Assembly: GCA_964057225.1 (NCBI GenBank)
Contig: OZ059894.1
Span: forward strand, 18,724,001 to 18,788,000
Direction: 5' to 3'
Length of the DNA stretch: 64,000 bases
DNA from: Auanema rhodensis
Lineage: Eukaryota > Animalia > Nematoda
Position 1 is the stretch's first letter; every line of letters starts with the position of its first letter. Below are positions 1 to 64,000 of the stretch, one piece after another. The position numbers and the translations under genes are program-made. The notes below the pieces were generated by a model. It searched no databases, was not told the origin of the DNA, and saw only the letters and a program-made list of their open reading frames with translations.

Positions 1-109
1 AACACAGATCGACGCAGCTTAAAAATCCGCATCGAATGCACTATACTACATTGAGAAACGCTTAATACAAAAATTAGTTATGATCGTTTGAAAAATGATG
101 CATTAGTGT

Positions 110-137
110 ATGTTGAGTTTCCATGTACACTCAACAT
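110..137. other. 28-bp dyad of the monomer, the empty Merlin target site (one per monomer)
   Basis: ATGTTGAGT (110-118) is the reverse complement of ACTCAACAT (129-137). The 10-nt spacer TTCCATGTAC carries the Merlin TSD TCCATGTA at 120-127. Confidence 0.95.
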
Positions 138-150
138 TGCTTCCAAAAAC

Positions 151-185
151 ATTTTGACAAAAATTTTTTCGAAAAATTTCAAAAT
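151..185. other. AT-rich imperfect palindrome centred on TTCGAA (one per monomer)
   Basis: ATTTTGA (151-157) pairs with TCAAAAT (179-185) around the core TTTTTCGAAAAA. The central G is polymorphic (G/A) among monomers. Confidence 0.8.
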
Positions 186-320
186 AATTTAGCAAAAAGT
201 AGATGTTTTTAGATTCCTTTTTTCAAGGCAAAGACGATGGACAATGTTATTCAACGAAAAAAATAATTCTTCAGGGTGAAAATCGAGGATATAAGTGTGA
301 ACTGATATCAGTTGATATCT

Positions 321-385
321 CGGTGCATTTTTAAGCTAGCGCAAATCTGATAACACAGATCGACGCAGCTTAAAAATCCGCATCG
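321..385. other. 65-nt imperfect hairpin (one per monomer)
   Basis: Stems CGGTGC/GCATCG (one G-T pair), ATTTTTAAGCT/AGCTTAAAAAT (11 bp perfect), GCG/CGC and ATCTG/CAGAT close the loop ATAACA. Confidence 0.85.
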
Positions 386-9600: not shown

Positions 9601-11560
9601 TGTACACTCAACATTGCTTCCAAAAACGTTTTGACAAAAATTTTTTCGAAAAATTTCAAAATAATTTAGCAAAAAGTAGATGTTTTTAGATTCCTTTTTT
9701 CAAGGCAAAGACGATGGACAATGTTATTCAACGAAAAAAATAATTCTTCAGGGTGAAAATCGAGGATATAAGTGTGAACTTATATCAGTTGATATCTCGG
9801 TGCATTTTTAAGCTAGCGCAAATCTGATAACACAGATCGACGCAGCTTAAAAATCCGCATCGAATGCACTATACTACATTGAGAAACGCTTAATACAAAA
9901 ATTAGTTATGATCGTTTGAAAAATGATGCATTAGTGTATGTTGAGTTTCCATGTACACTCAACATTGCTTCCAAAAACATTTTGACAAAAATTTTTTCAA
10001 AAAATTTCAAAATAATTTAGCAAAAAGTAGATGTTTTTAGATTCCTTTTTTCAAGGCAAAGACGATGGACAATGTTATTCAACGAAAAAAATAATTCTTC
10101 AGGGTGAAAATCGAGGATATATATGTGTGAACTTATATCAGTTGATATCTCGGTGCATTTTTAAGCTAGCGCAAATCTGATAACACAGATCGACGCAGCT
10201 TAAAAATCCGCATCGAATGCACTATACTACATTGAGAAACGCTTAATACAAAAATTAGTTATGATCGTTTGAAAAATGATGCATTAGTGTATGTTGAGTT
10301 TCCATGTACACTGAACATTGCTTCCAAAAACATTTTGACAAAAATTTTTTCAAAAAATTTCAAAATAATTTAGCAAAAAGTAGATGTTTTTAGATTCCTT
10401 TTTTCAAGGCAAAGACGATGGACAATGTTATTCAACGAAAAAATTAATTCTTCAGGGTGAAAATCGAGGATATAAGTGTGAACTTATATCAGTTGATATC
10501 TCGGTGCATTTTTAAGCTAGCGCAAATCTGATAACACAGATCGACGCAGCTTAAAAATCCGCATCGAATGCACTATACTACATTGAGAAACGCTTAATAC
10601 AAAAATTAGTTATGATCGTTTGAAAAATGATGCATTAGTGTATGTTGAGTTTCCATGTACACTCAACATTGCTTCCAAAAACATTTTGACAAAAATTTTT
10701 TCGAAAAATTTCAAAATAATTTAGCAAAAAGTAGATGTTTTTAGATTCCTTTTTTCAAGGCAAAGACGATGGACAATGTTATTCAACGAAAAAAATAATT
10801 CTTCAGGGTGAAAATCGAGGATATAAGTGTGAACTTATATCAGTTGATATCTCGGTGCATTTTTAAGCTAGCGCAAATCTGATAACACAGATCGACGCAG
10901 CTTAAAAATCCGCATCGAATGCACTATACTACATTGAGAAACGCTTAATACAAAAATTAGTTATGATCGTTTGAAAAATGATGCATTAGTGTATGTTGAG
11001 TTTCCATGTACACTCAACATTGCTTCCAAAAACATTTTGACAAAAATTTTTTCGAAAAATTTCAAAATAATTTAGCAAAAAGTAGATGTTTTTAGATTCC
11101 TTTTTTCAAGGCAAAGACGATGGACAATGTTATTCAACGAAAAAAATAATTCTTCAGGGTGAAAATCGAGGATATATATGTGTGAACTTATATCAGTTGA
11201 TATCTCGGTGCATTTTTAAGCTAGCGCAAATCTGATAACACAGATCGACGCAGCTTAAAAATCCGCATCGAATGCACTATACTACATTGAGAAACGCTTA
11301 ATACAAAAATTAGTTATGATCGTTTGAAAAATGATGCATTAGTGTATGTTGAGTTTCCATGTAGGCTCTAGTGCAGTTTTTCCCCCCCCCCGCCTAAGCC
11401 CCGCCCCTTTTGCCAAACGGTGCATACTTTTTGTCAACCTGTATAATTTTAAACCGGCGGGAGACATACCTTTCAGAACGGGGGGTTTGGGGGGTTTACC
11501 CCCCATTCTCGGTGTTTAGTTTTGATTTACTTTTGATTAAATTTAATTATAATATTTTTA

Positions 11561-12488
11561 TTATTCACGGTTATTAATATCATTCATAAAATCATTAATA
11601 TCACATAACATATTTTCAAAAAGGTCTGAATTTATGTGTCTACGGCGCCACATAAATTCACACAAATAACCATCTAACATGTGAGTCTGTACCCCCCATA
11701 AACGCTTAAATTTGGCTTTCGCAATGTTCCAAACTCCCTCTATAGTATTAGTATGAGCTGCGGTTTCGGGGTCAACAAAATTATATGTATGGTTAACCGT
11801 CAGATGGGTGTATTGCTTGTTTAAAGATTCTAACCCCCCATAAGCGCGCCAGCAGTCTGATATTATAGTACTTCCAGGATTTATTGAGAACTCAATACAT
11901 TCCTGGAGAGTAGCTCTACTTCTATCAGGCACTGCATACAAAAAACATTCCTTTGTCTCACGACATATCCCCCCAAACACCCATTGCTCTGGCTTAACCC
12001 TACCAACATTATATTTACGCTTAGATACAAGGGTCTCATCTATCTCTACAGTCATATTAGGGCCCCCTATTTTAACTGGATTTTTTAAAAGGGAGTGGGC
12101 ACAGACCTCACGTAAAAAATTATTATAGTCTACTACAGTATGATTGGATCCTATTCCCAGCTCATCTTTGCAAAATTGAACTGTAGTATACTCCTTTGTC
12201 CAACAGTAGATGAAGAGTATGAAGTTAGCATACGATAAGTGAGAACCTATTTAATTTTAATTATTTACATCTTAAATGTGAAGCTATACCTTCTAAAAAT
12301 GTTCTTTTTTTTAATTGCTGTTCTTTCCTACAGCTTTTTTTGGGGCATCTCCACCGTTCACGCTCTATTGAGAGCTTCATTTCAGATTGGCAGAGGCTAC
12401 AGATCATAGCATCTGGTAACAACCCCTTTTTTTGCAAAAATCGAATTGCATTTTCTTTAGTTGCAACTTTATCTCTTAGAGCGAACAT
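11561..12488 (-). CDS. Merlin transposase, 294 aa, two exons (12488-12290, 12246-11561)
   Basis: Removing the 43-bp intron 12247-12289 (GTATAG...AAATAG) joins ...RTFLE-G-SHLSYANFILFIYCW...KIGGPNMTVEIDETLV in frame. It has an N-terminal CxxC...CxxxxC zinc ribbon and the catalytic motifs VEIDE, IISDCW and HTNTIEG. This copy has a private K for E (FLQKK). Confidence 0.93.
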
Positions 12489-12582
12489 GCTGTCAGATTG
12501 ACTTCGAGATATCGATTGTTTTTTATTTGATATTTATTATAATTTTTTTAATTTTTAAGCAACTGTGTGCTTTTCGGCAAAA

Positions 12583-12592
12583 GGGGCGGGGC
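12583..12592 (+). promoter_or_regulatory. GC-box-like GGGGCGGGGC inside the Merlin TIR, ~95 bp upstream of the transposase ATG
   Basis: Matches the Sp1/KLF GC-box consensus. It is present in both TIRs, so it may simply be a transposase-binding motif. Confidence 0.25.
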
Positions 12593-12800
12593 TTAGGGCC
12601 GGGGGGGGAAAAACTGCACTTGAACCTCCATGTACACTCAACATTGCTTCCAAAAACATTTTGACAAAAATTTTTTCGAAAAATTTCAAAATAATTTAGC
12701 AAAAAGTAGATGTTTTTAGATTCCTTTTTTCAAGGCAAAGACGATGGACAATGTTATTCAACGAAAAAAATAATTCTTCAGGGTGAAAATCGAGGATATA

Positions 12801-14211
12801 CAGTCCTGTGCGATGAAGGTTGCACACCCACTAGAATCCCCCCGTATCTTTTGAATCAAACTACAGAAAATTCGAAAAAAAATATTTTGGATGTTAAAAA
12901 CCACTACAGAATCAATAAAAAAATTTTAAAAATTAATTAAACAAGTTTATTAATATTTAGTTGGATATCCAAAATTATCAATCACTGCTTGAAGTCTTCT
13001 GGGCATCGATTCCACGAGTTTCTTCAGCAGATCCGGTGATATCTCCCTCCAGAGTGTACGGAGGACTCTGAACTTCTCATCCTTATTAGAACATGGGTAT
13101 TTTGAAGATTTTCGTCCAAGTTCTCTCCAAAGATGCTCGATGGGGTTGAGATCCGGAGACTGGCTGGGCCAATTTAGAACGTTCAGCCGGTTCTCTTCCA
13201 TGAACTTCGTTGTCGATCGAGCCGTGTGCTTGGGATCGTTATCTTGCTGCAGGATAAATCGATTCCTCGTTCCGAACTTGTTGATGGCGAACGGCATGAA
13301 GGCTTCTTGAAGAATGTGCTGGTAGTCTTCTGCACACATTCTGCCTTCTACGCGGAATAGTGGCCCAATTTCGGAGTAACAGAAACAACCCCAAACCATG
13401 ACGTTTCCGCCACCATGCTTGACCGTAGGTCGCATGTATTTGGGGTTGTACCGCTGATTGGGTGGCCTTCTGACGAATCCAGGTCCGTCATTTCCAAATA
13501 AGCAAAATTTGCTTTCATCAGTGAAAATGACGGAAGACCAATCTTCAGTGGTCCAGTTCAGATGCTCTTGTGCAAACTGAACACGCTTAAGCCTGTTGTT
13601 GACCGAAATCAACGGCTTTCGCACAGGAACACGGGCCCGTAAGTTTCTGGCTAACAGCCTTCTTCTTACATTGGAGGGATGAAGCATAATGTTAAACATA
13701 CGTTGAAGATGTTGGCTCAACTGCATGGATGTGATGTCTGGATGCTTCTGGACCAGCCTAACCAACAGATTGTCTTGATTGGTCGTGGTTTTTCTTTCTC
13801 GTCCTCTCATATCCACTTTGTATGGTTTCTGGGCATCTTTCCATATTCTTTGAATGGTACTGGAAGGCATCGACAGCATTTCGCCTATTTTTCGAACGCT
13901 TAAGCCCTTCTCCTTCATATTGATTATGATGGATCTTACTTCAGGAGAAGTTTTCTTGCCTCTAGCCATCTTAAATTTATAAATTTTAGTTTTTTATTAT
14001 GCAAAACAAGCAAAAATATGAATATTTTAAATATTAAACTTAAATTATTTTTAAAAAATTCAGTTTACATCATTTTAACTTCAATTTTAATCGATATGTT
14101 GATACTTCAGCCTGAAACCCAAATTAATTTTTTCGAATTTTTTTTTGTAGTTTGAGGTGGTTTTCTGGGGCCTCTAACATCGGGGTGTGCAACCTTCATC
14201 GCACAGGACTG
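12801..14211 (-). mobile_element. Tc1-family DNA transposon (complete, 1411 bp)
   Basis: Perfect 29-bp TIRs CAGTCCTGTGCGATGAAGGTTGCACACCC (12801-12829 and 14183-14211) with a TA TSD on both sides. An additional imperfect subterminal inverted segment CAAACTACA...AAATTCGAAAAAA is present. Confidence 0.97.
12950..13969 (-). CDS. Tc1 DD34E transposase, 339 aa, intact and intronless
   Basis: N-terminal paired-like HTH region with a GRERKTT linker, followed by FTDESKF, VKHGGGNVMVWGCF, QQDNDPKH and WPSQSPDLNPIEHLW. There are 34 residues between the second D and the E. Confidence 0.97.
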   Translation of the reverse strand: MARGKKTSPEVRSIIINMKEKGLSVRKIGEMLSMPSSTIQRIWKDAQKPYKVDMRGRERKTTTNQDNLLVRLVQKHPDITSMQLSQHLQRMFNIMLHPSNVRRRLLARNLRARVPVRKPLISVNNRLKRVQFAQEHLNWTTEDWSSVIFTDESKFCLFGNDGPGFVRRPPNQRYNPKYMRPTVKHGGGNVMVWGCFCYSEIGPLFRVEGRMCAEDYQHILQEAFMPFAINKFGTRNRFILQQDNDPKHTARSTTKFMEENRLNVLNWPSQSPDLNPIEHLWRELGRKSSKYPCSNKDEKFRVLRTLWREISPDLLKKLVESMPRRLQAVIDNFGYPTKY

Positions 14212-25288: not shown

Positions 25289-26553
25289 GGCTCTAGTGCA
25301 GTATTTCCCCCCCCCGCCTAAGCCCCGCCCCTTTTGCCAAACGGTGCATACTTTTTGTCAACCTGTATAATTTTAAACCGGCGGGAGACATACCTTTCAG
25401 AACGGGGGGTTTGGGGGGTTTACCCCCCATTCTCGGTGTTTAGTTTTGATTTACTTTTGATTAAATTTAATTATAATATTTTTATTATTCACGGTTATTA
25501 ATATCATTCATAAAATCATTAATATCACATAACATATTTTCAAAAAGGTCTGAATTTATGTGTCTACGGCGCCACATAAATTCACACAAATAACCATCTA
25601 ACATGTGAGTCTGTACCCCCCATAAACGCTTAAATTTGGCTTTCGCAATGTTCCAAACTCCCTCTATAGTATTAGTATGAGCTGCGGTTTCGGGGTCAAC
25701 AAAATTATATGTATGGTTAACCGTCAGATGGGTGTATTGCTTGTTTAAAGATTCTAACCCCCCATAAGCGCGCCAGCAGTCTGATATTATAGTACTTCCA
25801 GGATTTATTGAGAACTCAATACATTCCTGGAGAGTAGCTCTACTTCTATCAGGCACTGCATACAAAAAACATTCCTTTGTCTCACGACATATCCCCCCAA
25901 ACACCCATTGCTCTGGCTTAACCCTACCAACATTATATTTACGCTTAGATACAAGGGTCTCATCTATCTCTACAGTCATATTAGGGCCCCCTATTTTAAC
26001 TGGATTTTTTAAAAGGGAGTGGGCACAGACCTCACGTAAAAAATTATTATAGTCTACTACAGTATGATTGGATCCTATTCCCAGCTCATCTTTGCAAAAT
26101 TGAACTGTAGTATACTCCTTTGTCCAACAGTAGATGAAGAGTATGAAGTTAGCATACGATAAGTGAGAACCTATTTAATTTTAATTATTTACATCTTAAA
26201 TGTGAAGCTATACCTTCTAAAAATGTTCTTTTTTTTAATTGCTGTTCTTTCCTACAGCTTTTTTTGGGGCATCTCCACCGTTCACGCTCTATTGAGAGCT
26301 TCATTTCAGATTGGCAGAGGCTACAGATCATAGCATCTGGTAACAACCCCTTTTCTTGCAAAAATCGAATTGCATTTTCTTTAGTTGCAACTTTATCTCT
26401 TAGAGCGAACATGCTGTCAGATTGACTTCGAGATATCGATTGTTTTTTATTTGATATTTATTATAATTTTTTTAATTTTTAAGCAACTGTGTGCTTTTCG
26501 GCAAAAGGGGCGGGGCTTAGGGCCGGGGGGGGGGGGAAAACTGCACTTGAACC
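25289..26553 (-). mobile_element. Merlin copy 2 (complete, 1265 bp)
   Basis: Same TIRs and TCCATGTA TSD on both sides. It has a left-TIR SNP (GCAGTATTT), and the right TIR has a G12-A4 run. Confidence 0.96.
25485..26412 (-). CDS. Merlin transposase, 294 aa (intron 26171-26213)
   Basis: Same exon/intron structure as copy 1. Confidence 0.92.
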
Positions 26554-35405: not shown

Positions 35406-36300
35406 TTAAAAATAATCAAAATAATTTTCAAAAAGGTCTGAATTTATGTGTCTACGGCGCCACATAAATTCACACAAATAACCATCTAACATGTGAGTCT
35501 GTACCCCCCATAAACGCTTAAATTTGGCTTTCGCAATGTTCCAAACTCCCTCTATAGTATTAGTATGAGCTGCGGTTTCGGGGTCAACAAAATTATATGT
35601 ATGGTTAACCGTCAGATGGGTGTATTGCTTGTTTAAAGATTCTAACCCCCCATAAGCGCGCCAGCAGTCTGATATTATAGTACTTCCAGGATTTATTGAG
35701 AACTCAATACATTCCTGGAGAGTAGCTCTACTTCTATCAGGCACTGCATACAAAAAACATTCCTTTGTCTCACGACATATCCCCCCAAACACCCATTGCT
35801 CTGGCTTAACCCTACCAACATTATATTTACGCTTAGATACAAGGGTCTCATCTATCTCTACAGTCATATTAGGGCCCCCTATTTTAACTGGATTTTTTAA
35901 AAGGGAGTGGGCACAGACCTCACGTAAAAAATTATTATAGTCTACTACAGTATGATTGGATCCTATTCCCAGCTCATCTTTGCAAAATTGAACTGTAGTA
36001 TACTCCTTTGTCCAACAGTAGATGAAGAGTATGAAGTTAGCATACGATAAGTGAGAACCTATTTAATTTTAATTATTTACATCTTAAATGTGAAGCTATA
36101 CCTTCTAAAAATGTTCTTTTTTTTAATTGCTGTTCTTTCCTACAGCTTTTTTTGGGGCATCTCCACCGTTCACGCTCTATTGAGAGCTTCATTTCAGATT
36201 GGCAGAGGCTACAGATCATAGCATCTGGTAACAACCCCTTTTCTTGCAAAAATCGAATTGCATTTTCTTTAGTTGCAACTTTATCTCTTAGAGCGAACAT
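35406..36300 (-). CDS. Merlin transposase with altered C-terminus, 283 aa (intron 36059-36101)
   Basis: The ORF is open through all catalytic motifs and ends ...LFENYFDYF* instead of ...LFENMLCDINDFMNDINNRE*. Confidence 0.8.
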
Positions 36301-36440
36301 GCTGTCAGATTGACTTCGAGATATCGATTGTTTTTTATTTGATATTTATTATAATTTTTTTAATTTTTAAGCAACTGTGTGCTTTTCGGCAAAAGGGGCG
36401 GGGCTTAGGGCCGGGGGGGGGGGAAAACTGCACTTGAACC
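35424..36440 (-). mobile_element. Merlin copy 3, left end deleted (~248 bp incl. left TIR missing)
   Basis: The satellite stops at 35408, followed by a 15-bp filler and then internal Merlin sequence ATTTTCAAAAAGG. The right TIR and TSD (36441-36448) are intact. Confidence 0.94.
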
Positions 36441-49440: not shown

Positions 49441-50704
49441 GGCTCTAGTGCAGTTTTTCCCCCCCCCCCGCCTAAGCCCCGCCCCTTTTGCCAAACGGTG
49501 CATACTTTTTGTCAACCTGTATAATTTTAAACCGGCGGGAGACATACCTTTCAGAACGGGGGGTTTGGGGGGTTTACCCCCCATTCTCGGTGTTTAGTTT
49601 TGATTTACTTTTGATTAAATTTAATTATAATATTTTTATTATTCACGGTTATTAATATCATTCATAAAATCATTAATATCACATAACATATTTTCAAAAA
49701 GGTCTGAATTTATGTGTCTACGGCGCCACATAAATTCACAGAAATAACCATCTAACATGTGAGTCTGTACCCCCCATAAACGCTTAAATTTGGCTTTCGC
49801 AATGTTCCAAACTCCCTCTATAGTATTAGTATGAGCTGCGGTTTCGGGGTCAACAAAATTATATGTATGGTTAACCGTCAGATGGGTGTATTGCTTGTTT
49901 AAAGATTCTAACCCCCCATAAGCGCGCCAGCAGTCTGATATTATAGTACTTCCAGGATTTATTGAGAACTCAATACATTCCTGGAGAGTAGCTCTACTTC
50001 TATCAGGCACTGCATACAAAAAACATTCCTTTGTCTCACGACATATCCCCCCAAACACCCATTGCTCTGGCTTAACCCTACCAACATTATATTTACGCTT
50101 AGATACAAGGGTCTCATCTATCTCTACAGTCATATTAGGGCCCCCTATTTTAACTGGATTTTTTAAAAGGGAGTGGGCACAGACCTCACGTAAAAAATTA
50201 TTATAGTCTACTACAGTATGATTGGATCCTATTCCCAGCTCATCTTTGCAAAATTGAACTGTAGTATACTCCTTTGTCCAACAGTAGATGAAGAGTATGA
50301 AGTTAGCATACGATAAGTGAGAACCTATTTAATTTTAATTATTTACATCTTAAATGTGAAGCTATACCTTCTAAAAATGTTCTTTTTTTTAATTGCTGTT
50401 CTTTCCTACAGCTTTTTTTGGGGCATCTCCACCGTTCACGCTCTATTGAGAGCTTCATTTCAGATTGGCAGAGGCTACAGATCATAGCATCTGGTAACAA
50501 CCCCTTTTCTTGCAAAAATCGAATTGCATTTTCTTTAGTTGCAACTTTATCTCTTAGAGCGAACATGCTGTCAGATTGACTTCGAGATATCGATTGTTTT
50601 TTATTTGATATTTATTATAATTTTTTTAATTTTTAAGCAACTGTGTGCTTTTCGGCAAAAGGGGCGGGGCTTAGGGCCGGGGGGGGAAAAACTGCACTTG
50701 AACC
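49441..50704 (-). mobile_element. Merlin copy 4 (complete, 1264 bp)
   Basis: TIRs and TCCATGTA TSD on both sides. Confidence 0.96.
49639..50566 (-). CDS. Merlin transposase, 294 aa (intron 50325-50367)
   Basis: As copy 1, with a private L-to-F change (DGYFCEF). Confidence 0.92.
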
Positions 50705-53872: not shown

Positions 53873-55136
53873 GGCTCTAGTGCAGTTTTTCCCCCCCCCC
53901 CGCCTAAGCCCCGCCCCTTTTGCCAAACGGTGCATACTTTTTGTCAACCTGTATAATTTTAAACCGGCGGGAGACATACCTTTCAGAACGGGGGGTTTGG
54001 GGGGTTTACCCCCCATTCTCGGTGTTTAGTTTTGATTTACTTTTGATTAAATTTAATTATAATATTTTTATTATTCACGGTTATTAATATCATTCATAAA
54101 ATCATTAATATCACATAACATATTTTCAAAAAGGTCTGAATTTATGTGTCTACGGCGCCACATAAATTCACACAAATAACCATCTAACATGTGAGTCTGT
54201 ACCCCCCATAAACGCTTAAATTTGGCTTTCGCAATGTTCCAAACTCCCTCTATAGTATTAGTATGAGCTGCGGTTTCGGGGTCAACAAAATTATATGTAT
54301 GGTTAACCGTCAGATGGGTGTATTGCTTGTTTAAAGATTCTAACCCCCCATAAGCGCGCCAGCAGTCTGATATTATAGTACTTCCAGGATTTATTGAGAA
54401 CTCAATACATTCCTGGAGAGTAGCTCTACTTCTATCAGGCACTGCATACAAAAAACATTCCTTTGTCTCACGACATATCCCCCCAAACACCCATTGCTCT
54501 GGCTTAACCCTACCAACATTATATTTACGCTTAGATACAAGGGTCTCATCTATCTCTACAGTCATATTAGGGCCCCCTATTTTAACTGGATTTTTTAAAA
54601 GGGAGTGGGCACAGACCTCACGTAAAAAATTATTATAGTCTACTACAGTATGATTGGATCCTATTCCCAGCTCATCTTTGCAAAATTGAACTGTAGTATA
54701 CTCCTTTGTCCAACAGTAGATGAAGAGTATGAAGTTAGCATACGATAAGTGAGAACCTATTTAATTTTAATTATTTACATCTTAAATGTGAAGCTATACC
54801 TTCTAAAAATGTTCTTTTTTTTAATTGCTGTTCTTTCCTACAGCTTTTTTTGGGGCATCTCCACCGTTCACGCTCTATTGAGAGCTTCATTTCAGATTGG
54901 CAGAGGCTACAGATCATAGCATCTGGTAACAACCCCTTTTCTTGCAAAAATCGAATTGCATTTTCTTTAGTTGCAACTTTATCTCTTAGAGCGAACATGC
55001 TGTCAGATTGACTTCGAGATATCGATTGTTTTTTATTTGATATTTATTATAATTTTTTTAATTTTTAAGCAACTGTGTGCTTTTCGGCAAAAGGGGCGGG
55101 GCTTAGGGCCGGGGGGGGAAAAACTGCACTTGAACC
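53873..55136 (-). mobile_element. Merlin copy 5 (first unit of tandem dimer)
   Basis: Left TSD TCCATGTA. The right end GAACC is followed by only TCCAT and then the next copy. Confidence 0.96.
54071..54998 (-). CDS. Merlin transposase, 294 aa (intron 54757-54799)
   Basis: Same structure as copy 1. Confidence 0.92.
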
Positions 55137-55141
55137 TCCAT

Positions 55142-56406
55142 GGCTCTAGTGCAGTTTTTCCCCCCCCCCCGCCTAAGCCCCGCCCCTTTTGCCAAACGGT
55201 GCATACTTTTTGTCAACCTGTATAATTTTAAACCGGCGGGAGACATACCTTTCAGAACGGGGGGTTTGGGGGGTTTACCCCCCATTCTCGGTGTTTAGTT
55301 TTGATTTACTTTTGATTAAATTTAATTATAATATTTTTATTATTCACGGTTATTAATATCATTCATAAAATCATTAATATCACATAACATATTTTCAAAA
55401 AGGTCTGAATTTATGTGTCTACGGCGCCACATAAATTCACACAAATAACCATCTAACATGTGAGTCTGTACCCCCCATAAACGCTTAAATTTGGCTTTCG
55501 CAATGTTCCAAACTCCCTCTATAGTATTAGTATGAGCTGCGGTTTCGGGGTCAACAAAATTATATGTATGGTTAACCGTCAGATGGGTGTATTGCTTGTT
55601 TAAAGATTCTAACCCCCCATAAGCGCGCCAGCAGTCTGATATTATAGTACTTCCAGGATTTATTGAGAACTCAATACATTCCTGGAGAGTAGCTCTACTT
55701 CTATCAGGCACTGCATACAAAAAACATTCCTTTGTCTCACGACATATCCCCCCAAACACCCATTGCTCTGGCTTAACCCTACCAACATTATATTTACGCT
55801 TAGATACAAGGGTCTCATCTATCTCTACAGTCATATTAGGGCCCCCTATTTTAACTGGATTTTTTAAAAGGGAGTGGGCACAGACCTCACGTAAAAAATT
55901 ATTATAGTCTACTACAGTATGATTGGATCCTATTCCCAGCTCATCTTTGCAAAATTGAACTGTAGTATACTCCTTTGTCCAACAGTAGATGAAGAGTATG
56001 AAGTTAGCATACGATAAGTGAGAACCTATTTAATTTTAATTATTTACATCTTAAATGTGAAGCTATACCTTCTAAAAATGTTCTTTTTTTTAATTGCTGT
56101 TCTTTCCTACAGCTTTTTTTGGGGCATCTCCACCGTTCACGCTCTATTGAGAGCTTCATTTCAGATTGGCAGAGGCTACAGATCATAGCATCTGGTAACA
56201 ACCCCTTTTCTTGCAAAAATCGAATTGCATTTTCTTTAGTTGCAACTTTATCTCTTAGAGCGAACATGCTGTCAGATTGACTTCGAGATATCGATTGTTT
56301 TTTATTTGATATTTATTATAATTTTTTTAATTTTTAAGCAACTGTGTGCTTTTCGGCAAAAGGGGCGGGGCTTAGGGCCGGGGGGGGGAAAAACTGCACT
56401 TGAACC
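55142..56406 (-). mobile_element. Merlin copy 6 (second unit of tandem dimer)
   Basis: Starts GGCTCTAG at 55142. The right end is followed by TCCATGTA and then satellite. Confidence 0.96.
55340..56267 (-). CDS. Merlin transposase, 294 aa (intron 56026-56068)
   Basis: Same structure as copy 1. Confidence 0.92.
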
Positions 56407-60626: not shown

Positions 60627-61891
60627 GGCTCTAGTGCAGTTTTTCCCCCCCCCCCCGCCTAAGCCCCGCCCCTTTTGCCAAACGGTGCATACTTTTTGTC
60701 AACCTGTATAATTTTAAACCGGCGGGAGACATACCTTTCAGAACGGGGGGTTTGGGGGGTTTACCCCCCATTCTCGGTGTTTAGTTTTGATTTACTTTTG
60801 ATTAAATTTAATTATAATATTTTTATTATTCACGGTTATTAATATCATTCATAAAATCATTAATATCACATAACATATTTTCAAAAAGGTCTGAATTTAT
60901 GTGTCTACGGCGCCACATAAATTCACACAAATAACCATCTAACATGTGAGTCTGTACCCCCCATAAACGCTTAAATTTGGCTTTCGCAATGTTCCAAACT
61001 CCCTCTATAGTATTAGTATGAGCTGCGGTTTCGGGGTCAACAAAATTATATGTATGGTTAACCGTCAGATGGGTGTATTGCTTGTTTAAAGATTCTAACC
61101 CCCCATAAGCGCGCCAGCAGTCTGATATTATAGTACTTCCAGGATTTATTGAGAACTCAATACATTCCTGGAGAGTAGCTCTACTTCTATCAGGCACTGC
61201 ATACAAAAAACATTCCTTTGTCTCACGACATATCCCCCCAAACACCCATTGCTCTGGCTTAACCCTACCAACATTATATTTACGCTTAGATACAAGGGTC
61301 TCATCTATCTCTACAGTCATATTAGGGCCCCCTATTTTAACTGGATTTTTTAAAAGGGAGTGGGCACAGACCTCACGTAAAAAATTATTATAGTCTACTA
61401 CAGTATGATTGGATCCTATTCCCAGCTCATCTTTGCAAAATTGAACTGTAGTATACTCCTTTGTCCAACAGTAGATGAAGAGTATGAAGTTAGCATACGA
61501 TAAGTGAGAACCTATTTAATTTTAATTATTTACATCTTAAATGTGAAGCTATACCTTCTAAAAATGTTCTTTTTTTTAATTGCTGTTCTTTCCTACAGCT
61601 TTTTTTGGGGCATCTCCACCGTTCACGCTCTATTGAGAGCTTCATTTCAGATTGGCAGAGGCTACAGATCATAGCATCTGGTAACAACCCCTTTTCTTGC
61701 AAAAATCGAATTGCATTTTCTTTAGTTGCAACTTTATCTCTTAGAGCGAACATGCTGTCAGATTGACTTCGAGATATCGATTGTTTTTTATTTGATATTT
61801 ATTATAATTTTTTTAATTTTTAAGCAACTGTGTGCTTTTCGGCAAAAGGGGCGGGGCTTAGGGCCGGGGGGGGAAAAACTGCACTTGAACC
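60627..61891 (-). mobile_element. Merlin copy 7 (complete, 1265 bp)
   Basis: TIRs and TCCATGTA TSD on both sides. Confidence 0.96.
60826..61753 (-). CDS. Merlin transposase, 294 aa (intron 61512-61554)
   Basis: Same structure as copy 1. Confidence 0.92.
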
Positions 61892-62953: not shown

Positions 62954-64000
62954 GGCTCTAGTGCAGTTTTTCCCCCCCCCCCCGCCTAAGCCCCGCCCCT
63001 TTTGCCAAACGGTGCATACTTTTTGTCAACCTGTATAATTTTAAACCGGCGGGAGACATACCTTTCAGAACGGGGGGTTTGGGGGGTTTACCCCCCATTC
63101 TCGGTGTTTAGTTTTGATTTACTTTTGATTAAATTTAATTATAATATTTTTATTATTCACGGTTATTAATATCATTCATAAAATCATTAATATCACATAA
63201 CATATTTTCAAAAAGGTCTGAATTTATGTGTCTACGGCGCCACATAAATTCACACAAATAACCATCTAACATGTGAGTCTGTACCCCCCATAAACGCTTA
63301 AATTTGGCTTTCGCAATGTTCCAAACTCCCTCTATAGTATTAGTATGAGCTGCGGTTTCGGGGTCAACAAAATTATATGTATGGTTAACCGTCAGATGGG
63401 TGTATTGCTTGTTTAAAGATTCTAACCCCCCATAAGCGCGCCAGCAGTCTGATATTATAGTACTTCCAGGATTTATTGAGAACTCAATACATTCCTGGAG
63501 AGTAGCTCTACTTCTATCAGGCACTGCATACAAAAAACATTCCTTTGTCTCACGACATATCCCCCCAAACACCCATTGCTCTGGCTTAACCCTACCAACA
63601 TTATATTTACGCTTAGATACAAGGGTCTCATCTATCTCTACAGTCATATTAGGGCCCCCTATTTTAACTGGATTTTTTAAAAGGGAGTGGGCACAGACCT
63701 CACGTAAAAAATTATTATAGTCTACTACAGTATGATTGGATCCTATTCCCAGCTCATCTTTGCAAAATTGAACTGTAGTATACTCCTTTGTCCAACAGTA
63801 GATGAAGAGTATGAAGTTAGCATACGATAAGTGAGAACCTATTTAATTTTAATTATTTACATCTTAAATGTGAAGCTATACCTTCTAAAAATGTTCTTTT
63901 TTTTAATTGCTGTTCTTTCCTACAGCTTTTTTTGGGGCATCTCCACCGTTCACGCTCTATTGAGAGCTTCATTTCAGATTGGCAGAGGCTACAGATCATA
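62954..64000 (-). mobile_element. Merlin copy 8 (cut by window edge)
   Basis: Left TSD TCCATGTA (62946-62953) and left TIR are present. The element runs off the window. Confidence 0.95.
63153..64000 (-). CDS. Merlin transposase, 5'-partial (intron 63839-63881)
   Basis: Exon 2 is complete and exon 1 is truncated by the window edge. Confidence 0.88.

Follow-up and report, generated by a model that had tools for sequence, protein, structure and literature searches.

The window analysed here, a stretch of 64 kb, is a tandem satellite array broken up at seven sites by a Merlin element, in eight copies altogether, and once by a Tc1-like element. On balance, the eight Merlin copies probably go back to a founder insertion, or a few, at a near-symmetric site of the satellite monomer, followed by amplification within the array. 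One founder, or very few, would have chosen the near-symmetric site that is the best dyad of the monomer, a two-fold symmetric transposase complex mildly favouring such sites with no requirement for 9-bp arms. Unequal exchange or gene conversion in the array would later have multiplied the copies, Merlin-bearing monomers presumably being copied like any other monomer variant, and copying of this kind would fix site and orientation while the flanking variants are reshuffled. Both parts of this scheme have precedents in the extracts of the literature drawn on here: DDE elements generally have symmetric target motifs that are longer than the target site duplication (TSD) (PMC2577343), and multiplication of TE insertions inside an array is known (PMC5932611). 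The case that Merlin reads the palindrome is weak, because the eight copies likely descend from one or few insertions multiplied by satellite turnover. On present evidence, what the locus chiefly offers is a clear illustration that satellite turnover can look like site-specific integration.

The satellite monomer (1-351, forward strand) is 351 bp long, has about 31% GC and is repeated in tandem throughout the window, in which 150 complete monomers were scored; a comparison with the contigs of four sequencing runs showed the satellite to be very abundant in them. The dyad occupies 28 bp of the monomer (110-137, assigned to neither strand) and reads ATGTTGAGT-T-TCCATGTA-C-ACTCAACAT. Its 9-bp arms (110-118 and 129-137) are perfect reverse complements, and 12 of the 14 pairs about the axis 123/124 match. 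This axis ranks first of the 351 even axes at half-widths of 12-14, 19 and 20; it is not unique at narrow widths, with 32 axes equal at half-width 4 and nine at half-width 8. Over half-widths 4-25, three axes stand alone in first place at one width or another, and nine hold it alone or in a tie, which bears out an earlier statement, made in a preliminary description of this DNA, that the monomer has few such axes among its 351 positions. The composition-weighted symmetry score of the dyad is 14.9, as against 10.1 for the runner-up axis, and any axis of at least 12/14 was found in only 7 of 1000 first-order Markov monomers, which makes this dyad an unusual one. The monomer has a second dyad (289-308; 9-bp arms, 4-nt spacer, axis 298/299), which contains the site of the Tc1-like element in its left arm and is used by no Merlin copy in the window.

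Several possible identities for the repeat were considered. An Rfam search of positions 1-800 returned nothing above the gathering score, and thus no RNA gene is indicated; comparison of the dyad with viral contigs gave no match, nor did comparison by eye of the monomer with the four FISH probes in the available part of the Auanema rhodense preprint (10.64898/2026.08.27.747507). The SFE elimination motif of rhabditids, described as a 29-bp palindrome with a GGC-N3-GCC core (PMC13060919, in extract), was rejected as an identity for the dyad, which has 28 bp and no GGC or GCC.

The Merlin elements, which read GG...CC, lie between copies of TCCATGTA, the 8 bp that form monomer positions 120-127 (forward strand) in an empty copy and that are duplicated at occupied sites. 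The TSD is present on both sides at five of the seven occupied sites; of the other two, one holds a copy without a left end and one runs into the end of the window. The centre of the TSD is the dyad axis 123/124, so that the observation from which this work started, an 8-bp TSD centred exactly on a 28-bp dyad and itself palindromic at 6 of 8 positions (three of four pairs), is upheld in full. That DDE elements favour symmetric targets, also put forward there, agrees with what is given in PMC2577343. It had further been argued that the independence of the insertions is irrelevant; this was overstated, the centring amounting to one post hoc event in which a single uniform insertion on such an axis has p of about 0.003-0.03, depending on the choice of width.

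In the palindromic target-site model, as the extract of PMC2577343 presents it for the P element, IS903 and Tc1, the TSD likewise forms the middle of a longer symmetric site whose arms lie beyond it. The Merlin case differs in that its dyad is 28 bp long whereas the motifs there have at most 19 bp, in that it consists of one site and no logo, and in that all eight copies share one orientation. The window holds its own control for symmetric targets in the Tc1-like element (12801-14211), which looks intact, with a 339-aa ORF and a 29-bp perfect terminal repeat, and which is inserted in the TA of a +AT variant of the monomer; its empty site agrees at 9 of 10 positions with the Tc1 target motif CAYATATRTG (PMC2577343). 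The +AT variant was also considered as a Tc1 footprint, which was rejected since one base is replaced besides the addition.

The element belongs to the Merlin superfamily: its DDE_Tnp_IS1595 transposase, 51-bp TIRs beginning with GG and 8-bp TSD all fit the definition quoted from PMC8101967, namely TIRs of 24-462 bp starting 5'-GG and a TSD of 8 or 9 bp. All copies lie on the reverse strand. M1 (11364-12626) has 1263 bp and imperfect 51-bp TIRs (46 of 51 positions matching) with a GG start, and M2 (25289-26553) agrees with it in site and orientation. A truncated copy (35409-36440), the sister of M2, lacks the first ~250 bases and the left TSD; M3 (49441-50704), M6 (60627-61891) and M7 (62954-64000, cut by the window end) are single copies. 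The remaining site carries a head-to-tail dimer (53873-56406), in which copies 53873-55136 and 55142-56406 lie inside one intact pair of 8-bp TSDs.

In M1 the transposase is probably split into two exons, both on the reverse strand. The putative exon 1 (12290-12488) encodes 66 aa with a Cys-pair zinc ribbon, matched weakly by PF12760 (E 0.0039, below the PF12760 cut-off); a 43-nt GT-AG intron is predicted at 12247-12289 (reverse strand), where the change of frame aligns with the uninterrupted homolog P0004; and exon 2 (11561-12246) is an open frame encoding an IS1595-type DDE domain (PF12762, DDE_Tnp_IS1595, E 2e-17). The blocks of the acidic triad are conserved in an alignment of 38 sequences, and no domains other than the usual zinc ribbon and DDE were found in the protein. 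Its best named homologs are Auanema proteins, with 71% and 60% identity, which makes a nematode host probable. The GG-terminal TIRs, the 8-bp TSD, the single DDE_Tnp_IS1595 transposase and the weak zinc ribbon are all shared with the Merlin/IS1595 elements (the relatives of IS1016) in the part of PMC8101967 used here; the predicted 43-nt intron and the clustering at one position of a host satellite are where the present element differs. It is a new family of Merlin, with a mechanism that is most likely known already, and literature searches for a Merlin target motif, satellite targeting, target preference or transposition mechanism found nothing.

Two features of the element ends may be recorded here. 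The TIRs contain C/G runs (11392-11412 and 12578-12600) and one GCCTAA unit, which equals the nematode telomere repeat (PMC13060919, in extract); the G-rich strand of the TIR might form a quadruplex. At the left junction of the truncated copy (35409-35430) about 17 additional bases are found that are similar to the satellite beside them and that by their appearance could be a templated insertion from end-joining repair.

The number of insertion events can be approached through the flanking monomers. M1, M2 and the truncated copy are one lineage: they have in common the type of their first downstream monomer, which 9 of the 150 monomers carry, and their pair scores fall in the top 0.3%, 0.3% and 3.1% of the background. 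A variant found in 2 of the 150 monomers and one SNP within the element are moreover common to M2 and the truncated copy. M3, the dimer, M6 and M7, which come from a stretch of the array that is more uniform, have no significant flanking variants in common with anything (background fractions of at least 0.196), and one to five lineages are therefore possible. The eight copies, at seven sites, are all oriented alike. At palindromic hotspots the P element inserts in either orientation at random (PMC2577343, as excerpted); among five lineages a single orientation has p = 0.06, which is not decisive, and an argument from orientation is weak if the copies share descent.

A second approach was by sequencing depth. 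The depth of interior contigs of the young element is 0.6-2.7 times that of its diverged, presumably single-copy relatives, and the summed depth of the satellite, with the same relatives as reference, is 4,000-77,000x. Allowing for a 31-fold overcount, all four runs come out at no more than 0.1-0.44 elements per 100 monomers, as against about 5 in the window, which suggests that the element is at least 10-fold more frequent in the window than across the satellite as a whole, on an arithmetic that is rough, contig depth not being copy number and the runs possibly deriving from other strains than the assembly. The contrast in depth suggests a local cluster, unlike what targeting among thousands of like sites would give.

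The earlier suggestion that the transposase reads the two 9-bp half-sites needs to be weighed against this. In its fullest form, the family would read a half-site like TTGAG lying 3-7 bases outside each side of the TSD, for which the dyad would be a perfect hotspot; several of the copies would be independent local insertions and the dimer would reflect re-targeting beside a resident end. We regard this as rather unlikely. The first rank of the dyad among the 351 axes is what it would predict, and the four sites with no flanking variants in common, like a dimer junction that is exact at both element ends, are consistent with it. Arms beyond the TSD are also listed for IS903 (Table 1 of PMC2577343), and the right tip of the element carries TTGA in register with the arm which, together with the TTGAGCC at the ends of older relatives, echoes the target-restoring ends of the P element in the excerpt of that paper. 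Against this, the overall match of tip to arm is only 4 of 10 (p = 0.31), none of the eight copies is reversed, the copies cluster despite the thousands of like targets, and the usual two domains are all that the protein has.

Flanking symmetry at other insertions had been named beforehand as the point on which the half-site proposal could fall, and the result is mostly against a requirement for 9-bp arms. Flanks of dispersed copies were taken from contigs and compared by hand, one side only, among the loose ends listed (21 of 24); three were readable, with arm matches of 7/10, 4/10 and 3/10, the remaining loose ends having too few flank bases or a blurred consensus. Among the loose ends listed there is no satellite junction of the opposite orientation, to which no weight can be given, as contigs that overlap an element end by just about 30 bases seem to be missing from the comparison. 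The 4/10 belongs to a left end that differs from a window copy at 1 of 124 bases and has a non-satellite flank, and the 3/10 to an older relative, whose right flank was read from the consensus of two contigs; two of the three readable flanks thus fail to match the arm. The 7/10 (p about 0.007) comes from a second left flank, which reaches 11/18 when the TSD is included (p about 0.003) and favours the reading of half-sites, with a likeness that ends beyond the arm. The near-identical left end and the older relatives, with their non-satellite flanks, show that the family is not confined to the satellite. Of the targeting inference, then, the part that stood is that the centring beats uniform chance; the arm requirement is mostly contradicted by the other sites.

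Sites of other elements bear on the same question, and on whether symmetry mattered at all. From 80 metagenome loci, 8 distinct scorable sites with TIRs and TSD could be rebuilt for other Merlin families (one of them a 324-bp non-autonomous element, and one with a 9/8-bp TSD); they have 2-7 of 14 pairs, compared with local means of 3.3-4.0. Thirteen loci from a prokaryote collection were examined and none was scorable. Among 12 plasmid loci, two that had no paired ends and two with mismatched TSDs were left out, one of the four scoring 8/14; the seven ISAcra1-like sites with perfect 7-bp TSDs have 2-6 of 14 pairs and one other IS1595 site has 6/14. None of the 8 other Merlin sites and 8 clean IS1595 sites, therefore, exceeds 7/14. 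Extended arms are not a family trait, as far as sites from distant relatives (36-56% or about 30% protein identity) can speak to this, for these sites belong to other families and are a test of the superfamily, not of the window element.

Background symmetry at the other Merlin sites is what would be expected if one insertion fell on the dyad by coincidence, its symmetry being irrelevant, and was later amplified. The probability per event is about 0.01-0.03 when the choice of width is allowed for, and the case was picked post hoc from a very large scan, both of which make coincidence easier to accept. It is nonetheless unlikely, since the axis is the best of the monomer by a clear margin and a short symmetric core, TT-N3-AA, is present in six of the seven clean ISAcra1-like sites, which indicates that the family is not blind to symmetry. 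A founder at a mildly favoured near-symmetric site thus remains the preferred reading.

The preliminary description had offered two further routes, a transposase that cuts an extruded cruciform and a host protein bound to the dyad that recruits the transposase; neither finds support in this analysis, and we consider them highly improbable. The single-stranded DNA of 100-147 does fold into a hairpin (-7.3 kcal/mol, z -3.16), with a 9-bp stem and a 10-nt loop that encloses the entire TSD, as the cruciform route would want. However, cruciform extrusion is unfavourable with 9-bp arms and a 10-nt loop, hairpins are absent from the sites of the other elements, and the dyad is no better conserved than the remaining monomer (3 of 39 variant sites fall in its 28 of 351 bases). 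The dyad also lacks GGC-N3-GCC, the core of the elimination motif in rhabditids (PMC13060919).

The dimer is a more interesting lead than targeting of the dyad, and by analogy its junction resembles those of the IS30 type. Between the two element ends lies a 5-bp spacer, TCCAT (55137-55141, forward strand), identical to the first five bases of the TSD. The junction is spanned with zero differences by an 82-nt contig from X2, an independent run, which makes an assembly error unlikely. In X2 the depth of the junction is about 0.4 of single copy; germline restriction of the satellite could explain this, by analogy with the large germline-limited satellite blocks of Auanema rhodense in the extract of the preprint 10.64898/2026.08.27.747507. 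Recombination between two TSDs was rejected as the origin of the dimer, since it would leave 8 bases and 5 are found. A double insertion with a loss of 3 bp and an IS30-type end-to-end junction fit equally well. At the site of the extra copy, one arm of the dyad is replaced by the element end, so that the full dyad is not needed if the dimer arose by second insertion.

Both possibilities have counterparts elsewhere. In Drosophila (hobo, P and an R1 array; PMC5932611, in extract), head-to-tail dimers likewise occur at one site and the insertion was multiplied with the array; hobo dimer junctions often have small deletions, while P and intact hobo junctions keep the full 8-bp TSD, in contrast to the five bases kept by the Merlin dimer. 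IS30, as presented in the excerpt of PMC9333248, has a dual specificity for near-palindromic hot spots and for insertion beside its own ends, and shares with the present element a near-palindromic target and a junction of left and right ends with a spacer derived from the flank. It differs in belonging to an unrelated bacterial family and in its 2-bp spacer, as against the 5 bp of the Merlin dimer. For composite transposon circles of IS1595, the review PMC9462459, as excerpted, credits homologous recombination. That Merlin itself has an IS30-like dual specificity, reading, to either side of the cut, a half-site similar to the tip of its TIRs and attacking beside resident ends to leave a 5-bp junction derived from the flank, is distinctly improbable. 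Were it so, the satellite dyad would be a built-in safe haven, and the element would be a eukaryotic DDE transposon that targets a satellite and forms junctions (copy-out/paste-in). A true end-to-end junction in the dimer would point to a bacterial-style mechanism in an animal; and proof that the arms are read would make the element, with its transposase of about 295 aa and its 28-bp target, a rarity among eukaryotic DNA transposons in being site-selective.

Among eukaryotic elements, the Dada DNA transposons target multicopy RNA genes (PMC3706591), and they resemble the present element in that a single position of a multicopy sequence is occupied repeatedly. Dada, on the other hand, is of another superfamily, while the Merlin target is a satellite without an Rfam match and three of the Merlin copies are one lineage.

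Some minor observations concern the other elements collected for the site comparison. The first 8 bases of the Merlin left end (11364-11371), GGCTCTAG, are the same as those of the ISAcra1-like bacterial elements (L094:673-680), despite a protein identity of only about 32%. These ISAcra1-like elements (L094-L104) have 7-bp TSDs, mostly TT-N3-AA, at seven of the nine loci with paired ends, as against the 8 bp usual for the IS1595 family. The 324-bp non-autonomous element has GG ends, is flanked by a 9-bp TSD and is present at L075:128-451 and at L076:626-949, where it is nested inside a Merlin that has an 8-bp TSD.
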